A DNA stretch of 64,000 bases, taken from Isurus oxyrinchus. Its lineage: Eukaryota. Of the stretch, positions 1 through 62,514 are shown in pieces. Location: the NCBI GenBank assembly GCA_026770705.1, contig JANJGN010000052.1, positions 930,001 through 994,000 of the forward strand, given 5' to 3'. The notes beneath the pieces are model-generated. The model was not told where the DNA came from and made no database searches. It worked only from the letters and a program-made list of their open reading frames with translations. Position 1 is the first letter of the stretch. Each line of letters begins with the position of its first letter. The position numbers were made by a program, and so were the translations under genes.

Positions 1-750
1 AGGAAGAGTTGTAGGGGCTGGACGGATTGCAGAGGTAGGGAGGGTTGGAAAGGCTGGTGGAGGTTTCAGAGGTAGGGAAGGCTGCAGGGACTGGAGGAGT
101 TTACAGAGATGGGGGAGTTTTTGGGGCAGGATGGGGTTACAGAGATAGGGAGGGTTGTAGGGGCAGGACGAGGTTACATAGATATGGAGTGTGGCTGGGG
201 CTGAGGGAGGCTACAGAGATAGGGAGGGTTATAATGGCTGGAGGAGTTACAGAGATGAAGGAAACTCTTAGGGACTGGAGGAGGTTACAGAGATAGGGAG
301 GGTTGTAGTGGGCTGGAGGAGGTTACAGAAATATGAAGGGTTGTAAGAGATGGACCAGCTTACAGAGATAGGGAGAGGTATTCGGTCTGGAGGAGTTTGC
401 AGAGATAGTGGAGGTTGTTAGGACTGGAGGAGGCTACAAATATCGCGAGGGTTATCGGGGCTTGAGGAGGTTAAAGAGATAGGGAGGGGTGTTGGGTCCG
501 GAGGAGTTTGCAGTGATAGGAATGGTTTTCGGGATTGGAAGAGAGTACTGAGATAGGAGGGTTGTAGGGACTGGAGGAGTCTCCTGAGATAGGGAGGGTT
601 GTAGGGACTGGAGGAGGCTCCTGAGATAGGGAGGGTTGTAGGGACTGGAGGAGGCTCCTGAGATAGAGAGGGTTGTAGGGACTGGAGGAGGCTCCTGCGA
701 TAGGGAATGTTGCCGTGGATGAAGATAAAGGAGGAGATTACTGTAATAGG
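1..750. repeat. Purine-rich minisatellite, ~37-bp unit (gagatagggagggttgtagggactggaggagg...)
   Basis: Degenerate tandem units directly visible, adjoining the 3' side of the L2-type fragment; same unit on the other strand at ~54600-54770. Confidence 0.85.
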
Positions 751-759
751 GAGGAAAAA

Positions 760-1730
760 TATTCAAAAATTTGGACATTGAGACTTTGCTTGACCAGGAG
801 CCAGTCTCGGTCATCGAGCAGAGCGGGTGATAAGGGAACGGGACTTGGTGTGAGTAAGGACGTGGTCAGCAGTTTTGGATGGCCTCAAGTTTATGGAGTG
901 TAGAGCATGTGTTGGAACAGTCGAGTCTGGAGGTAATGAAGGCGTGGATGAGGGTTTCAGCAGCAGATGAGCTGAGACAGGGTGAAGTCGTACGACGTTA
1001 TGGAGGTGGAAATAGACAGTGTTAGTGAGGGCGCAGATATGAGGCCGGAAGCTCATCTCAGGATCAAATGGGACAACAAAGCTGTGAACAGATTGGCTTC
1101 AATCTCAGAGAGCTGCCAGGGAGAGGAATGGAGTTGGTAGCGAGGGAACAGAGTTTGGATCGAGGAATGAAGACAATGGCTTCAGTCTTTCCAATATTTA
1201 ATTGGAGGGAATTTCTGCCCATCCAGTACTGGATGTCGGATAAGCAGCCTGATAATTTAGCAGCAGTGGAGGAGTCGAGAGAGGTGGTGGTGAGGTAGAG
1301 CTGGGGATCCTCAGTGGACAGGTGAAAACTAATACTGTTCAGATGATGCTGCAAAGCCATTGCAAGTGATTCTCTGGCTACGATGAGATGGATAAGAATG
1401 AAGCCAGGGGAGAGCAGTCCCACCCAGCTGGACGACAGTGGAGAGGGGTTGGAGGAGGATGGTGTGGTCGAGCGTGTCAAAGGCTGCAGACAGATCGAGA
1501 AGGACGAGGAGGGAAAGTTGACCTTTGTCACAGTCACACAGGATGCCATTTGTGACCTTGATAAGAGCTGTTTCAGCACAGTGGCTGGGGTGGGAACCTG
1601 ATTGGAGGGATTCAAACATGGAGTTCCGGGAAAGATGGAACCGGATTCGGGAGATGGAAACACGTTCAAGGACTTTGGAGGGGAAAGAGAGGCTGGAGAT
1701 GGGACGGGGGTTTACACGGACAGTGTGAGG
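760..1730 (-). mobile_element. Degenerate L2/CR1-group LINE reverse transcriptase fragment
   Basis: ORF 1329-1763 has RPISSLSFPSKVLERV...QSG...ETALIKVTN...LLVLLDLSAAFDTLDH; ORF 1064-1669 has WMGRNSLQLNIGKTE; frameshifted. Confidence 0.9.
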
Positions 1731-1983: not shown

Positions 1984-2361
1984 CAGAAACGTGAAGCTGG
2001 GTTTCAGGGGAAACGTTATGTCTCGGACCATTGCCAAATTTTATCGTGAAAAAATAAGATCCTGCATCTTCCCGTCTGATGTTGTTTATAATCAGGGAAC
2101 AGTCGCCATCTTTCAGGTCTCCAGACAGCCGGGTCCGATGGTGGAACTGTGATAACTCGCGACTGTGACCCTTGGAGTGAAAGGCTATAGACCATTTAGA
2201 CCATTTGTTCTGTATGTATCTTCTCATTTTCCAGATTCCGACCTGTGGTTTCTTTACCAAATCTGATGGATAACTGTAATGACATGGAATCTGTACACAC
2301 GAACCTTCCTGCGCTGTCACCTCTCGTGGAGTGTCACCTTTCCACTCTTGTGACAATCCAA
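1984..2361 (-). CDS. Locus S1: Siglec-type V-set Ig exon, Arg-less (YFFTIK); gene continues beyond left edge
   Basis: ccccag acceptor and gtaag donor; 378 nt, phase 1-1, open; CVQIPC...GDLKDGDCSL...YFF pattern (B-E intra-sheet Cys, no F-strand Cys) typical of Siglec V domains. Confidence 0.92.
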
Positions 2362-12634: not shown

Positions 12635-12787
12635 ATTCCACAGTAATGGTTATGAACCCCTCCACTGCTCCATGTTCATTCTCTGCCACACACTGATAGT
12701 CTCCAGTGTCCCTGGATGTAACGTGAGGAATCAGCAACCACAGCTCATTGTTGGAACTTCTTCTGTTCATTTGGACATTCAGATGTC
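12635..12787 (-). pseudogene. Locus S2 5'-truncated C2-set exon
   Basis: MNRRSSNNELWLLIPHVTSRDTGDYQCVAENEHGAVEGFITITVE with gtgag donor; similarity to the 282-nt paralogous exons stops at ~12787 and no acceptor is evident. Confidence 0.88.
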
Positions 12788-13310: not shown

Positions 13311-13684
13311 CAGAAACGTGAAGCTGGGTTACAGGATAGTAGCTGTAACTATTCCTGCTGTCAAACTCTATTCTGAAAAAATAAGGTCCTGCATCTTCCC
13401 GTCTGATGTTGTTTATAATCAGGGAACAGTCACCATCTTTCAGGTCTCCAGACAGCCGGGTACGATGGCGGAATCTTTGATCCCTGTGATTGTGACCCTC
13501 GGAGTGAAAGGCTATAGACCATTTAGGCTGTGGGTTCCCATCTATTCCTTTCAACCAGATTCTGCACGTGATCTCCCTACGAAATTTGATAAGTAACTGT
13601 AATGACATGGAATCTGTACACATGAACCTTCCTGTGCTGTCACCTCTCGTGGAGTGTCACCTTTCCACTCTTGTGACAGTCCAA
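13311..13684 (-). pseudogene. Locus S2 Siglec V-set exon (Arg retained, YFFRIE) with frameshift and mutated acceptor
   Basis: 374 nt (1-nt loss near 13562 splits it across ORFs 13551-13733 and 13231-13623); acceptor reads cccccg instead of ccccag. Confidence 0.88.
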
Positions 13685-14387
13685 CGGGGGAGAGAAATAT
13701 CAATATTTGACTCTGGATGGTTTGTAGATCCACTAGACTCGATATCCACCCCCTCCATCACTGGGGCACAGTGGCTGCAGTGTGGACCATCTACAGGACA
13801 CACAAGGAACTCCCCAAGGTTTCACAACAGATAGAAGAGAATCCTGGACACAGGAGTGGACAAGTTCATTCTACATTGGCTCATGGTCCTCAGGACCCTG
13901 TTTAGTGAAGCCAGTCTTCCATCCAACACAGTGTCTACAAGATACACAGGGAAACTGTGTAAATATCTCATCTCTCAACACTGAATGGGCTGAGCTTCAG
14001 TTTAACTTTCAGTATTTTTAAATTTCCATATTGTGGTTGCTATGGTGAAACTGTGCAGGAAGTGTGAGGGCTGGACTCTCTGTCTATTCTCACTGCAGCT
14101 GTGATGTGGTCGTGGTGATTCTCAGTAAAATGAAACCCTCTGATCTCCTCCATCGCCGAGGTTTAGGGAGTGAATTCCAGAGCTCAGGTCCCAGGCAGCT
14201 GTAGGCACGGCCGCCAGTATTGGAGTGATGGGAATTGGGGGATGGTCAAGAGGCCAGATTTGGAGTAACACAGAGATCTGGGAAGTTGATTGGTTGCATT
14301 GCAGGAGGTTACAGAGATAAAGAGATAAGAATGATCTTTTACAAAGACTGTTAAATATAAATCTGTCCAAGCTGACGATGATATTAC

Positions 14388-18964: not shown

Positions 18965-19081
18965 TTATAAATTCCCATAAACAGAATCCTTGGCAAATTC
19001 ACAGTTTGCGTAAAGATCATCATCTGTATCAGGATTGACTCCGCGGTTAGATTTCATTTCCAGATCCTTCTCATCTTTCTT
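18965..19081 (-). CDS. Locus S3 last cytoplasmic exon (KKDEKDLEMKSNRGVNPDTDDDLYANCEFAKDSVYGNL*)
   Basis: Acceptor tttctattacag; phase 0, 39 codons incl. TAA; two Tyr motifs after acidic residues; minus-strand AATAAA at 18185-18190 and 18017-18022. Confidence 0.82.
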   Translation of the reverse strand, partial: KKDEKDLEMKSNRGVNPDTDDDLYANCEFAKDSVYGNL

Positions 19082-20841: not shown

Positions 20842-20947
20842 CTGATTCCTCAAAGCCCAACCACGCTCACAGTTTTCATAAACAGGACCTCGATATTCAT
20901 CAACACGGTGGTTCGATTTGATTCCTGCTTTCCCCTCACCTCTCTTC
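20842..20947 (-). CDS. Locus S3 first cytoplasmic exon (KRGEGKAGIKSNHRVDEYRGPVYENCERGWALRNQ); acceptor reads CG, not AG
   Basis: 106 nt, phase 2 to 0, exactly bridging the TM exon and last exon; donor CAG|gtgagt; polypyrimidine tract present but ends tttcg. Confidence 0.7.
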
Positions 20948-22262: not shown

Positions 22263-22359
22263 TTTCTCACACACTTGAAGATGAAGAATCCACTCAGTCC
22301 AACACTCAAACAGATTCCAGCTCCAAGCAATCCTGCTTTCCATTCATTGGAATCTCGCC
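22263..22359 (-). CDS. Locus S3 transmembrane exon (RRDSNEWKAGLLGAGICLSVGLSGFFIFKCVRK)
   Basis: ttacag/gtaag; 97 nt, phase 1 to 2; paralogous to 52623-52719. Confidence 0.88.
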
Positions 22360-23625: not shown

Positions 23626-23907
23626 GTTCCACAGTGATGGTTATGAATCCCTCCACTGCTCCATGTTCATTCTCTGCCACACACTGATAGTCTCCAGTGT
23701 CCCTGGATGTAACGTGAGGAATCACCAACCACAGCTCATTGTTGGAACTTGTTCTGTTCATTGGGACATTAAGATGTCGCCACGTCAGGTTAGAAGCTGG
23801 GAAGCTCTCGACAGAGCAGATTATCACTGTAGAATTCCCCTCAATTATATTGATCGATGAAGCGTTAATCATATCAAGAGAAGTAATTGAGAGGTTCTGT
23901 GGAGCAT
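23626..23907 (-). CDS. Locus S3 C2-set exon (domain 5)
   Basis: ttttag/gtgag; 282 nt, phase 1-1; APQNLSI...IICSVESFPASNLTW...DTGDYQCVAENEHG. Confidence 0.9.
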
Positions 23908-24386: not shown

Positions 24387-24668
24387 GTTCCACAGTGATG
24401 GTTATGAACCCCTCCACTGCTCCATGTTCATTCTCTGCCACACACTGATAGTCTCCAGTGTCCCTGGATGTAACGTGAGGAATCACCAACCACAGCTCAT
24501 TGTTGGAACTTGTTCTGTTCATTGGGACATTAAGATGTCGCCACGTCAGGTTAGAAGTTGGGAAGCTCTCGACTGAGCAGATTATCACTGCAGAATACCC
24601 CTCAATTATATTGATCGATGAAACGTTAATCATATCAAGAGAATTAATTGAGAGATTCTGTGGTGTGT
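24387..24668 (-). CDS. Locus S3 C2-set exon (domain 4), tandem duplicate of domain 5
   Basis: tttcag/gtgag; 282 nt, phase 1-1, open. Confidence 0.9.
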
Positions 24669-29352: not shown

Positions 29353-29610
29353 ATTCAGTGGGAATTCTAATGGGCAGAGACTGGGAACTGCCCAGGATAC
29401 TTGTTGCTTCACAGTAGTAGGAGATTTCCTCATCGAATCCATAAGGAACTGTAATAGTTTGACCAGCGAGCGCGAGATTCGTCATCTTTCCTTGGGAGAT
29501 CTTAAACCAGGTGAAATTGTGGACTGCTGGATTCCCGTCACTGGAACAACTTAGAGAAATCACCTTTCCTTTTTCCAGTGTCAGCCTGACAGACGTGTTG
29601 TGAGGAGAAT
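29353..29610 (-). CDS. Locus S3 C2-set exon (domain 3), CD22/sialoadhesin-like
   Basis: 258 nt, phase 1-1; YSPHNTSV...LSCSSDGNPAVHNFTWFK...YYCEATSILGSSQS; acceptor AAG, donor gtgag. Confidence 0.88.
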
Positions 29611-30118: not shown

Positions 30119-30406
30119 ACTTTACACTCAGAGTAACGGAGCTGACCACTCGATGGCTGGTTTGAGGGTAGTCGCACGTACAGCGGAGAGTTCGTCCATG
30201 ATGCTTGAACGAAGGGTTAAAGGTCAGTAGAGCGGAAACCTCACCACCGTTCTCTGTAATGTTGCTGACCGATGAAGTCAGCAATTCACTCCAGGTTAGA
30301 TTGGGGTGGTTATCAGGGCAGGTGTAGAGGCATTTACAGATGATATGTGCAGGAGTCCCCTCCTGTAAATCCTTCAGGAGCACAATAACTGGCTTATCTG
30401 GAGCAT
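30119..30406 (-). CDS. Locus S3 C2-set exon (domain 2)
   Basis: ttacag/gtaag; 288 nt; DAPDKPVI...ICKCLYTCPDNHPNLTW...LTFNPSFKHHGRTLRC, Siglec domain-2 pattern with the inter-domain Cys. Confidence 0.9.
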
Positions 30407-32360: not shown

Positions 32361-32493
32361 GCACCAGATCACATACTGGACTTTGTTCTGACATCTCCTG
32401 GAGCAGGAATTCAACCCATGACTGCCTGGCTCTGAGATGAGAACATGACCCCCTTGTGCTGATAGACTGACTGTGAAAGGAACTGGGACTTAC

Positions 32494-32850
32494 CAAGAAC
32501 CTGGAGTTGGACTGGTTGTGTAAAAGTGTGATCTGTGTAGCCCTCCACATCCACATAAAAGTAATACACATCACTATCTTCAGCTCTGAGACTGTCAATC
32601 CTCACCGAACAATTCTTCCCTTCCAAGTCGCCGATTATTTTAGCACGTCCCACGAATGTGGCCATCGCATAGTTGGGATCTTTGGTGTATGTGATGGTAT
32701 ATTTCCATCTATACCAATATTTATACCAAGCTCCGTGCAGTGCTGTGTAAGAGTGGGAAGGAAAGTCAAAGCTACACGGAATAACCACACAAGAGCTGCT
32801 GATGGCCCTCCGAGACAGCGCCTTCATAGACCATCCCTCTGACGTCACTC
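32494..32850 (-). CDS. Locus S3 divergent Siglec-type V-set exon, Arg replaced by Tyr (YYFYVD)
   Basis: tttcag/gtaag; 357 nt, phase 1-1; CVVIPCSF...GDLEGKNCSVRI...EDSDVYYF. Confidence 0.92.
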
Positions 32851-32889
32851 CTGAAAGGCAACAAGGGAAGAGACAGGACATCAAAAAGC

Positions 32890-33670: not shown

Positions 33671-33716
33671 CTTGCAGCAAGCTGATGAAGATCAGTATCA
33701 GACCGACCTCTCCCAT
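33671..33716 (-). CDS. Locus S3 leader exon coding part (MGEVGLILIFISLLQ-)
   Basis: ATG 33714-33716 in AAGATGG context; 46 nt, phase-1 donor AG|gtac; acceptor at 33731. Confidence 0.85.
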
Positions 33717-47090: not shown

Positions 47091-47339
47091 TCAGTTTTTC
47101 TGGAACCTGATCTGTGCGTATTCCGTGTCCTCGCTCCTGTGCACAGTCCTGTCACCGCCGGGCAGCTTTGAAAAGTTGATGTTGGCGTAGAGAAGCTTGG
47201 CGGGATTGTCGGGGTTCCCATGTCCAACATCGCCTCCCACTGGACCTTCAGAGAGATCCCGGGGAGCTGGGGTCTCCCCCTCACTAGTTGTGTCTCTGGT
47301 TGTGTTCCGGGGCTCAGTAATCAGCACGTTCTGTTTACC
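47091..47339 (-). CDS. Locus S4 distal last exon with ITIM (LLYANI) and ITSM (TEYAQI)
   Basis: ctgtag acceptor; phase 0; open to TGA at 47091-47093. Confidence 0.88.
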   Translation of the reverse strand, partial: GKQNVLITEPRNTTRDTTSEGETPAPRDLSEGPVGGDVGHGNPDNPAKLLYANINFSKLPGGDRTVHRSEDTEYAQIRFQKN

Positions 47340-47830
47340 CTACAGAGAAATGGAAACAGAAGATATCCTCACATCAATTACTGGTACTGATAGGGTTAAA
47401 TTATTGTGCAGCCTCATTAGTGTCAGTCGTATCTCAGTGGGTTTAACCCTTTTTTTCACTCTCTTTCTCTGTCTCTCTCGCTTTCTCTCTCTCTTTATAA
47501 TTTAATCTCTATCACACTCCAACAGTGCAGCACTCCCTCAATACTGACCCTCTGACAGTGCAGCACTCCCTCAGTGCTGACCCTCCGACAATACAGCGCT
47601 CCCTCAGTACTGACCCTCTGTCAGTGCAGCACTCCCTCAGTACTGACCCTCCAACAGTGCAGCACTCCCTCAGTACTGACCCTCCAACAGTGCAGCACTC
47701 CCTCGGTAATGGCTCTGGTGAGTGATGGCTTGGAATCTGCACACAGGTGCCTGGTGTGAGGCTCAATAACATGAACCTTGTAATCAGAGAGAGGATGAGA
47801 GAGAGGGAGAGAGGAGGGACAGAGACAGAG

Positions 47831-48764: not shown

Positions 48765-48899
48765 GAGAGACAGCATGATACTGAACCATTGCTGACTCCA
48801 CAGATACAAATCAGTGGGTAACTGGGCTGGGAATCTGGGACATGTGTTGTCTACACACTGAGATTGAAGCTTTGGAGTGAGTGTAAACAGCTCCTGTAC

Positions 48900-48981
48900 C
48901 TGGTGCTTCACACAGAGTGAACTGGGGGTCAATGCAATGTCTCTGGTCCCTGAAACTCTCTCCTCCATCGCTGTCTTTCTC
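48900..48981 (-). CDS. Locus S4 distal first cytoplasmic exon (RKTAMEERVSGTRDIALTPSSLCVKHQ)
   Basis: ttgcag/gtac; 82 nt, phase 2 to 0. Confidence 0.82.
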
Positions 48982-50169
48982 CTGCAATAACACAATATGA
49001 CACTGTGGTTATCATATAGCAGAGAGTCAGTGCAGCACAGACATAGAGCACACTGTAACCTTACACCAATGACTGGACTGTCTCTTTAAATCACTTCTGC
49101 ACAAAGCACAGAATCTAGAATCTTGACACCATCCAGGACAAAGCAGCCCGATTGATCTACAACCCATCCCCCACATTAAACATTCACTCCCTCCACCATG
49201 AACACACAGTGGCAGCAGTGTGTGTACCATCTACAAGATGCACTGCAGCAACTCAGCAAGGCTCCTTCAACAGCACCTTCCAAACCCACGAACTCTACCA
49301 TCTAGAAGGACAAGGGCAGCAGACACATGGGAACACCACCACCTGGAAGTTCCCCTCCAAGTCACTCACCATCCTGACTTGGAAATATATCACCGTTCCT
49401 TCATTGTCGCTGGGTCAAAATCCTGGAACTCCCTCTCTAACAGCACTGTGGGTGTACCTACACCACATGGACCGCAGCGGGTCAAGAAGGCAGCTCACCA
49501 CCACCTTCTCAAGGGCAATTAGGGATGGGCATTAATGCTGACATCACCAGTGACAGACACATTCGATGAAAGAATTAAAAATCTCACAGCTCAATGTATT
49601 TATTGTGACCCTGCTGCACACACTCCCTGTCGAAGGAGCCTTTGTGGTTCTATTGTTAATCGAAGCAGATCAGAGTTACTACAACCACTTGCATTTATAG
49701 CACCTTCAATGTAGCAAAATGTCCTAAGGCTCATCTGGGGATTGTTAGTGACATCTTCACCTGACTCTGAGGCACATGAGGAGATATTAGGGACAGGAGA
49801 CCAACAGCTGAGTCAACAAAGTCAGTTATTAACGGGCATCTTAAAGGAGGAGCTGGAGATAGGGAATGAGAGACAGACACAGAAAGAAAGACAGAGACAG
49901 GGAGAGAGAGAGAGAGAGAGAGGGAGAGAGCGAGAGAGAGAGGGAGAGAGAGAGAGAGAGAGAGAAAGACAGTGAATCTCTATCCCCAATGGCTCAGCAT
50001 CCAGTCCTCTCTGGAGAAGCATTTCATTCCAAACCACACCAACCGCAGCCCAATTCCATCCCTTCCTCCCTCTTTCCCCCTCTCCCCCAGTGGGTGTTTC
50101 CTGTTCCCAGGAATCTCAATCACTACCCCCCACCCCCATACCTCCTCACTCACTCTCCCCATTTCTCAT

Positions 50170-50418
50170 TCAGTTATGCTCGAACCTGATCTGTGCGTAT
50201 TCCGTCTCCACTTCCCTGTGGACAGACCCATCACCACTGGACATCCTCAAGACTTGGGGATTGGCGTAGAGAAACTCTTCAGGTTTGTCAGGGTTCCCAT
50301 GTCCAACATCGCCTCCCACTGCATCTTCAGAGAGACCCCGGAGAGCTGGGGTCTCCCCCTCGCCAGTTGCGTCTCTCTTTGTGTTCTGGGGCTCAGTAAT
50401 CAGCACGTTCTGTTTACC
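50170..50418 (-). CDS. Locus S4 proximal last exon with disrupted ITIM (FLYANP) and ITSM (TEYAQI)
   Basis: ctgtag acceptor; phase 0; open to TGA at 50170-50172. Confidence 0.88.
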   Translation of the reverse strand, partial: GKQNVLITEPQNTKRDATGEGETPALRGLSEDAVGGDVGHGNPDKPEEFLYANPQVLRMSSGDGSVHREVETEYAQIRFEHN

Positions 50419-50928
50419 CTACAGAGAAATCGAAACAGAAGTTATCCTCACATCATTTACTGGCACTGATAGGGTTAAATTATTGTGCAGCCTTGTTAAT
50501 GTCAGTCGTGTCTCAGTTGGTTTAACCCTCTCTCTCATGTCATATGAAAGATACCACCTATGGCAGTGCAACGCTCCCTCAGGACTGACCCTCCGACAGT
50601 GCAGCACTCCCTCAGTACTGACCCTCCGACAGTGCAGCGCTCCCTCATTACTGACCCTCCGACAGTGCAGCGCTCCCTCAGTACTGACACTCCGACAGTG
50701 CAGCTCGCCCTCAGTACTGACCCTCCGACAGTGCAACACTCCCTCAGTACTGACCCTCTGTCAGTCTTGCACTCCCTCGGTAATGGTTCTGGTGAGTGAC
50801 AGTTGGATTCTGCACTCAAGTGTCTGGTGTGAAGCTCATTAACATGCACCTTGTAATCAGAGAGAGGATGAGAGAGAGAGAAAGAGAGAGAGAGAGAAAG
50901 AAAGGGAGGTTGGGATAGAGAGAGAGAC

Positions 50929-51683: not shown

Positions 51684-51818
51684 GAGAGACAGCATGATAC
51701 TGAAACATTGCTGACTCCACAGGTACAAATCAGTGGGTAACTGGGCTGGGAATCTGGGACACGTGTTGTCTACACACTGAGATTGAAGCTTTGGAGTGAG
51801 TGTAAACAGCTCCTGTAC

Positions 51819-51900
51819 CTGGTGCTTCACAGAGAGTGAACTGGGGCTCAATGCAATGTCACTGGTCCCTGAAACTCTCTCCTCCATCGCTGTCTTTCTC
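51819..51900 (-). CDS. Locus S4 proximal first cytoplasmic exon (RKTAMEERVSGTSDIALSPSSLSVKHQ)
   Basis: ttgcag/gtac; 82 nt, phase 2 to 0. Confidence 0.85.
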
Positions 51901-52622
51901 CTGCAATAACACAATATCACACTGTGGTTATCATATAGCAGAGAGTCAGTGCAGCACAGACACAGAGCCCACTGTTAGCTTACACCAACGACTGGACTGT
52001 CTCTTTAAATCACTTCTGCACAAAGCACAGAATCAAGAAGCTTGACACCATCCACAACAAAGCAGCTCGATTGATCAACACCCCATCCACCACATTAAAC
52101 ATTCACTCCCTCCACCACGAACACACAGTGGAAGCAGTGTGTGTACCATCTACAAGATGCACTGCAGCAACTCAGCAAGGCTCCTTCAACAGCACCTTCC
52201 AAACCCACGACCTCTACCATCTAGAAGGACAAGGGCAGCAGACACATGGGAACACCACCACCTGGAAGTTCCCCTCCAAGTCACTCACCATCCTGACTTG
52301 GAATTATATCACCGTTCCTTCACTGTCGCTGGGTCAAAATCCTGGAACTCCCTCTCTAACAACACTGTGGGTGTACCTACACCACATAGACTGTAGTGGG
52401 TCAAGAAGGCAGCTCACCACCTCTTTCTCAAGGGGCAATTGGGAATGGGCAATTAGTATTGTCCACGCCAATGACAGCCACATTCGATGAAAGAATTTAA
52501 AATCTCACAGCTTAGGAGGAAGCCACTCAGCCCATCGTGCCTGTGCTGGCCTTTTGTAAAAACTGTCCAATTAGTCCTAAGCAAATGTTTAGATTAAAAT
52601 CAAGTTAAATCTTCAGACTTAC

Positions 52623-62145: not shown

Positions 62146-62514
62146 CAGAAACGTGAAGCTGGGTTACAGGATAGTAGTTGTAACTATTACTGCTGTCAAA
62201 TTCTATTCTGAAAAAATAAGGTCCTGCATCTTCCCGTCTGATGTTCTTTATAATCAGGGAACAGTCGCCATCTTTCAGGTCTCCAGACAGCCGGGTCCGA
62301 TGGCGGAACCGTGGTAACTCGTGACTGTGATCCTTGGAGTGAAAGGCAATAGGAGCCCAGGGAATCTGTTTCTCATTATTAAACCAGACTCCACCTCGCG
62401 GTTGGTTTTCCAGACACGATGGATAACTGTAATGACAAGGAATCTGTACACACGAACCTTCCTGCGCTGTCACCTCTCGTGGAGTGTCACCTTTCCACTC
62501 TTGTGAGGGTTCAA
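62146..62514 (-). CDS. Locus S4 Siglec V-set exon with essential Arg (YFFRIE); leader not found in window
   Basis: ccccag/gtaag; 369 nt, phase 1-1, open. Confidence 0.94.

Follow-up and report, generated by a model that had tools for sequence, protein, structure and literature searches.

The closest described counterpart of the receptor reported here is MAG (Siglec-4; PDB 5LFR and 5LFV). The MAG ligand site is formed by the C-C′ loop together with strands F and G, and MAG proteins of all groups from fish to human share a WxxW C-mannosylation motif (PMC5150538); the contact residues are described in the same source and in PMC7226832. Siglecs without the essential arginine of strand F have been described in primates: human Siglec-XII carries R122C, ape Siglec-5/14 carry Arg to His, and one orangutan Siglec-14 carries Arg to Tyr. 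The ape Siglec-5/14 proteins with His or Tyr showed no sialic acid recognition (PMC6288428, PMC7379906). Siglec-6 offers another comparison. Its R122A variant still binds ganglioside liposomes, for which R92 and the inter-domain disulfide are required, and R92 is conserved in all Siglecs, yet Siglec-6 is the only one described as binding this way (PMC10122656). A further report places K126 and W127 of Siglec-6 in contact with the bilayer, describes Arg122 as retained and used in part, and gives no lipid engagement for Siglec-10 despite its apt aromatic and basic residues (PMC12953582). Our literature searches for shark or elasmobranch Siglecs, with little coverage of subscription journals, found no paper on the shark and ray lineage described below; in the whale shark genome paper, Siglecs receive a single brief mention.

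The window analyzed in this study is a 64,000-nt stretch of the Isurus oxyrinchus genome (GenBank assembly GCA_026770705.1, contig JANJGN010000052.1, positions 930,001 to 994,000 of the forward strand). On its minus strand, positions 32494–32850 were found to be exactly one V-set exon of 357 nt (phase 1-1), bounded by an AG acceptor at 32852–32851 and a GT donor at 32493–32492. The reading frame (32848–32495) encodes a 118-residue V-set domain (Pfam V-set, 1.6e-07), whose residues are numbered here from position 32848. By tblastn with orthologs and splice-site checks, ten exons from 33716 to 18965 could be joined into an open 637-aa protein consisting of a signal peptide, the V domain, four more Ig domains, a transmembrane segment and a tail with tyrosine motifs. 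The features are as follows, all on the minus strand.

33671..33716, minus: exon 1, start codon and signal peptide; GT donor, phase 1
32494..32850, minus: exon 2, Siglec-fold V-set domain (Pfam V-set, predicted model, both joints in contigs)
32687..32734, minus: aromatic C-C′ hairpin G39-Y54, GAWYKYWYRWKYTITY; strand 36–45, turn Y46-R47, strand 48–54
32555..32557, minus: Tyr98, aligned with MAG R118, the essential Arg of Siglecs
32528..32551, minus: acidic F-G loop D100-H107, from alignments
30119..30406, minus: exon 3, the first of the C2-type Ig domains, carrying the additional Cys C164 (tblastn; joint in contigs)
29353..29610, minus: exon 4, Ig domain; predicted joint
24387..24668, minus: exon 5, Ig domain of a type common to the neighbouring Arg-type genes; predicted joint
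23626..23907, minus: exon 6, near-duplicate of exon 5; predicted joint
22263..22359, minus: exon 7, transmembrane segment without a mid-membrane basic residue, 97% to protein P0008
21458..21542, minus: exon 8, cytoplasmic (tblastn and splice sites)
20842..20943, minus: exon 9, cytoplasmic, YxN motif VYENC (tblastn)
18965..19081, minus: exon 10, cytoplasmic, LYANC and a terminal ITIM-type SVYGNL, stop (tblastn and splice sites)

The joint between exon 1 and the V exon was seen in the RNA-like contigs X1, X6 and X8, and that between the V exon and exon 3 in X1, X2, X6 and X8, while joints past exon 3 are predicted only. RNA-like contigs from three studies and two organisms span the whole V exon without flanking intron bases; they come from runs guessed to be RNA, none of them recorded as such. 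Contig X1 differs from the V exon of the window by one letter, and because near-identical copies exist, the transcript is not assignable to this particular copy. The Siglec-like receptor gene is intact, with a spliced and strongly conserved V exon. As in Siglecs, the ten-exon model is a type I membrane protein with C2 domains and a tyrosine-motif tail.

The V domain itself agreed in most respects with what the sequence-only reading had described. The Siglec Cys signature without a Cys on strand F was present as CVVIPC (C20, C25) and NCS (C80), with F97 on strand F; C25 and C80, which would form the B-E pair to judge from the sequence, were invariant, and F97 was found in 18 of 18 orthologs. 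Strand F reads YYFYV, and Tyr98 aligned to MAG R118, as had been claimed; the essential strand-F Arg of Siglecs is replaced by this Tyr in all 18 orthologs. A putative inter-domain pair, C36/C164 in spliced-protein numbering, is likewise invariant and matches MAG C37-C165 (PMC5150538). The C-C′ string with eight aromatics (three W, five Y) and three basic residues was located at 32734–32687 (residues 39–54). Its description as extreme held against relatives, since among 264 other Siglec-like V domains the C-C′ region contained eight aromatics in one, seven in one and six in 24; it is weaker against MAG, whose aromatic-rich C-C′ region has six among 16 residues. All 25 V domains of the Tyr-type family, a set picked by motif, carry 8–10. 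In a domain-shuffle control (20 aromatics in 118 residues), at least eight aromatics fell within some 16-mer in 3.1% of 20,000 shuffles, so composition alone makes the hairpin only modestly unusual.

MAG was the best sequence match (6e-15, about 30–34% identity) and shares, besides the Cys pattern, the F-G/G-strand pattern Y104, T108 and F109, in which Y104 and T108 match MAG Y124 and T128. Unlike MAG, the shark family has Tyr in place of R118 and His or Tyr in place of Y127 (H107 here), lacks the WxxW motif, and consists of multi-copy genes with shuffled tails that form a separate clade. Sialoadhesin (Siglec-1; PDB 1QFO) resembles the shark V domain in fold (TM 0.89) and, in the alignment, in hairpin length, but the identity is 23–24%, and the shark protein differs in having no Arg, five Ig domains and a tyrosine-motif tail. 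The receptor resembles Siglecs in its fold and probably in its signalling; as it lacks the defining Arg, it should be filed as Siglec-like. Databases label Tyr-type proteins wrongly as MAG, CD22, sialoadhesin or Siglec-10/13/14.

In the AlphaFold2 model of the V domain (pLDDT 91.4, 79-row alignment), strand C covers residues 36–45 and strand C′ residues 48–54, joined by the two-residue turn Y46-R47, and strand F covers residues 93–102. The modelled domain has a Siglec fold: Foldseek ranked sialoadhesin and MAG at the top (TM 0.89–0.90), and VIA gave Z 19.4 for MAG and 19.3 for sialoadhesin (rmsd 1.4), its top 31 rows all being Siglecs. A single-sequence fold of the skate ortholog P0175 reached a pLDDT of 39, too low to be of use, and the homodimer prediction for the V domain scored 0.07, which is taken neither for nor against a dimer. 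Side-chain faces were read from strand alternation with W41 as the core Trp. By this parity Y42, Y44, K49, T51, Y96, Y98 and D100 would lie on the outer GFCC′ face, where MAG has its ligand (PMC5150538), and K43, W45, W48 and Y50 on the opposite side of the hairpin, with Y46 at its tip. Two of the eight aromatics are ordinary Siglec positions, W41 being the core Trp and Y54 the usual Siglec aromatic. As the hairpin aromatics would be split over opposite faces, they probably do not form the single aromatic patch that had been proposed; about four of them, though, probably surround the former sialic-acid site together with Y96, Y98, Y104 and H107.

Homologue searches returned 25 matches in one case, and 27 family members plus six distant ones in another. 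The Tyr-type family covered 16 named shark and ray species at 63–95% identity, the closest being Carcharodon (95%) and Cetorhinus (93%), and the best identity outside it was 39%. The homologue search found no short homologs of 64–207 aa; word-limited searches, which are weak as a sign of absence, recovered no Tyr-clade sequence from chimaeras (Holocephali) or bony fishes; and in the ESM Atlas only CD22/CD33-like V-set clusters matched. In the annotated proteins, this V head is combined with no fewer than three distinct sets of stalk, transmembrane segment and tail.

The ortholog alignment (n = 18; the window sequence and 17 others chosen by species, covering 16 species, with Rhinoraja left out) bore out the conservation of the aromatics; their lack of conservation, which would have refuted the sequence-only proposal, was thus not observed. 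W6, A40, W41, Y44, W45, W48, K49, Y50, Y54 and R68 were invariant, as were Y95, Y96, F97, Y98 and G103, and positions 42 and 104 were always aromatic. Two of the three basic residues were kept, K49 in 18/18 and K43 in 17/18, but position 47 was Tyr in nine, Ser in four, Arg in two, His in two and Lys in one, and is thus basic in 3/18. Position 107, which corresponds to MAG Y127, the G-strand aromatic on the glycerol chain of sialic acid, was His in 13 and Tyr in five. Positions 46, 47, 53, 105 and 106 were variable beside invariant residues. The eight residues after Tyr98 included two to four acidic and no basic ones in 30 of the 31 family proteins scored. Averaged over the 18 orthologs, identity was 85% in residues 41–50, as against 71% in the V domain as a whole and 63% in the first C2 domain. 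Conservation was higher in the Cys-signature stretch 19–32 (0.90–0.92) and in the stretch 91–100 (0.88) than in the hairpin (0.85), so some of it may have a structural cause. At positions 42–50, identity was 83% in 25 motif-picked Tyr-type domains (the 85% above was not motif-picked) and 22% in 18 shark V domains of Arg type, also picked by motif, 16 with Arg and with paralogs mixed; framework identity was near equal, at 72% and 71%, respectively.

Three trees were built, from 77 and 75 of 136 dereplicated rows and from 40 hand-picked rows, with group labels such as ‘CD33like’ being our own. The Tyr clade was fully supported in all of them (100/100 in the V+C2 tree). Within the clade, that tree sets rays apart from sharks, so the site predates the shark-ray divergence; this indicates that the Tyr clade descends from the elasmobranch ancestor, which is roughly 270–300 million years old. 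Orthology to MAG was considered and rejected: MAG and the Tyr clade were separate in the topologies of all three trees, and the WxxW C-mannosylation motif was absent, a single Trp (W6) being found in all 18 orthologs. Another Arg-less clade, distinct from this one and marked by Trp in place of the Arg (YxW[IV][DN]P), comprised 33 of 289 V domains; with some Ile, Gly or Ser members included, its support was 99/99. Its hosts are gar, teleosts (tarpon, tilapia), amphibians (frog), turtles and Varanus, and its proteins, among them P0027, P0029, P0060, P0062, P0096, P0100, P0105, P0130 and P0168, are unnamed in databases. The Tyr and Trp-type clades were joined weakly, at SH-aLRT 87 in one tree and at 82/80 in the V+C2 tree, there together with one Arg-bearing row, whereas the mixture-model tree placed the Tyr clade with three Arg-bearing rows at 89/90 and not with the Trp-type clade; the joining is unstable between trees, all of which retained the trait columns, and common ancestry is not claimed.

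Arg-less primate Siglecs, which share with the shark family a Siglec architecture lacking that residue, are for the most part interpreted as recent functional losses. They represent recent, often polymorphic point changes, whereas the shark Tyr is fixed and accompanied by a rebuilt invariant surface. Fixation of the Tyr before the shark-ray split, with a loop frozen where its neighbours are hypervariable, points to a gained and conserved function. The domain is small and foldable and has named residues, and it could serve as a probe of what else the Siglec fold recognises; it also bears on what early jawed-vertebrate inhibitory receptors sensed.

From the sequence, a different ligand class had been proposed, such as a neutral or sulfated glycan, a lipid or a protein. 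To judge from the lost Arg and the conserved aromatics, a ligand different from that of canonical sialic acid recognition is likely. No canonical salt bridge to sialic acid can form, and the acidic F-G loop would repel a carboxylate or sulfate, which disfavours the sulfated part of the proposal. Tentatively, we favour a neutral glycan or a glycolipid/lipid at the membrane as the putative ligand, bound via the old lectin face; this reading is plausible without being one we would call probable. Y42, Y44, Y96 and Y98, with Y104 and H107, would make up a platform for stacking against sugar rings on the GFCC′ face, and D100, E102, D106 and H107 might hydrogen-bond sugar hydroxyls. The W45-x-x-W48-K49 hairpin tip would make the loop more rigid and might contact the bilayer in the manner of Siglec-6 K126/W127, and the tail, with its ITIM-type SVYGNL and two YxN motifs, could dampen or tune signalling. 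The MAG site is made up of the C-C′ loop and strands F and G, where the shark invariant residues lie, which supports reuse of this face. A few invariant residues amid variable neighbours are what would be expected where the ligand is chemically fixed, and the invariant aromatic and acidic residues flanked by variable ones fit such a ligand. A membrane-associated neutral glycan or lipid also agrees with the frozen hairpin, as compared with 22% identity in Arg-type paralogs at an equal framework, although that comparison set mixes paralogs and other V segments are as conserved as the hairpin or more so. Contact of a Siglec V domain with the bilayer through Trp and Lys has a precedent in Siglec-6, a possible analogue whose binding does not rest on the canonical Arg; however, Siglec-6 needs sialic acid, its KW pair lies beside strands F/G and not on the C-C′ hairpin, and Siglec-10 shows no lipid engagement (PMC12953582).

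Tyr/Trp-rich GFCC′ faces are also a typical protein-binding surface of Ig domains, which counts against a glycan or lipid. The aromatic face might instead bind a conserved protein, a self-marker or a member of the cluster, as in CD2/SLAM, nectin and CD200R, and we regard this as possible but somewhat unlikely. Flat sheet faces rich in Tyr are characteristic of the interfaces that Ig domains form with proteins, and by parity Y42, Y44, Y96 and Y98 would make up such a face. Arg loss with long conservation would fit an endogenous partner, and the use of one V head on several stalks and tails also speaks for a protein ligand. Immune receptor-protein interfaces, however, usually drift between distant species, unlike the site residues here, which are invariant from skates to lamniform sharks, and the domain, derived from a lectin site, retains the MAG-like Y104 and T108.

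It appears improbable that sialylated glycolipids are still bound without the canonical Arg, by analogy with Siglec-6 in bilayers. The liposome binding of Siglec-6 R122A and the inter-domain Cys pair apparently kept in the shark protein speak for it, as does the invariant R68, which stands 30 residues before Tyr98 and would thus reproduce the R92-R122 spacing. Nevertheless, R92 is common to all Siglecs while only Siglec-6 binds so (PMC10122656), Siglec-6 retains its Arg and partly uses it (PMC12953582), and ape Siglec-5/14 with His or Tyr have no sialic acid recognition (PMC6288428, PMC7379906). The acidic F-G loop of the shark family also disfavours such binding. Quite improbable, in our view, is a mainly structural role of the aromatics as a Trp-zipper-like hairpin beside a ligand-free old site: W45 and W48 flank the two-residue turn in the model, W41 and Y54 are ordinary positions and other segments are equally conserved, but the invariant, by parity outward Tyr98 and Y44 and the contrast with the hypervariable Arg-type loop would be left unexplained. 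A polyanionic glycan, sulfated or otherwise, is highly improbable as a ligand of the basic residues, for although K43 and K49 are conserved, R47 is not, the F-G loop is acidic with no base in 30/31 proteins, and K43 would by parity face away from the ligand side. An LPS-binding hairpin and an aromatic cage for choline were also considered and set aside.

The favoured reading of a neutral glycan or lipid ligand could be widened to an unrecognised second branch of the Siglec fold in jawed vertebrates that reads lipids or neutral glycolipids in place of sialic acid, made up of the Tyr clade and possibly the Trp-type clade; we consider this extension unlikely. The frozen W-x-x-W-K hairpin and the Tyr platform would then be a binding site carried on varied signalling tails. 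If true, a lipid/neutral-glycolipid site would have been grafted onto different tails inside a giant shark Siglec cluster.

In the shark's own genome, 150 V matches were scored, among them 16 whole copies at 95–99% identity and 103 rows (102 loci) of partial copies at 86–96%, the further 31 being distant V domains; these counts may include haplotype duplicates. Ten codons vary synonymously and ten non-synonymously among the whole copies. The sole amino-acid change in residues 39–54 is I52V, and the Y98 codon varies only synonymously. All 14 partial loci examined (L017–L030) break after Y96 (window-equivalent 32561), just before Tyr98, and reach a stop three codons past the break; one ancient break was apparently multiplied together with the cluster. 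The broken form is present in one RNA-like X2 contig. In L018, the degenerate sequence after the break (about 429–1490, minus strand) presumably resembles a Gypsy-type LTR gag with zinc knuckle and protease.

A MAG V-domain query against the same genome gave one Arg-bearing V exon at 44% (L061, 1447–1902, minus strand, contig C8), which lies outside the cluster and lacks the first Cys of the CxxIPC motif as well as the MAG motifs; true MAG did not turn up with this query, and the match does not bear on orthology. For an Arg-type V exon of the window (62147–62506, minus strand), no fewer than 150 copies with 92% identity or higher were found on contigs C52, C71, C121, C150, C189 and others, which make up a very large Siglec-like cluster spanning many megabases. 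Elsewhere in the window, a V exon at 1985–2353 (minus strand) carries Thr in place of the Arg (YFFTIKF), and its C-C′ loop (WKMRRYIQNKWSKW) is long and rich in W, K and R. An Arg-type V exon at about 13312–13706 (minus strand) is split over two frames and is probably a pseudogene, and a partial Ig exon lies at 12636–12785. Downstream of the upstream Arg-type gene, cytoplasmic exons are duplicated (47094–47363, 50173–50457, 48876–49001 and 51795–51920, minus strand); one of them ends in an ITIM/ITSM-type pair (LLYANI, TEYAQI), and alternative tails are possible.
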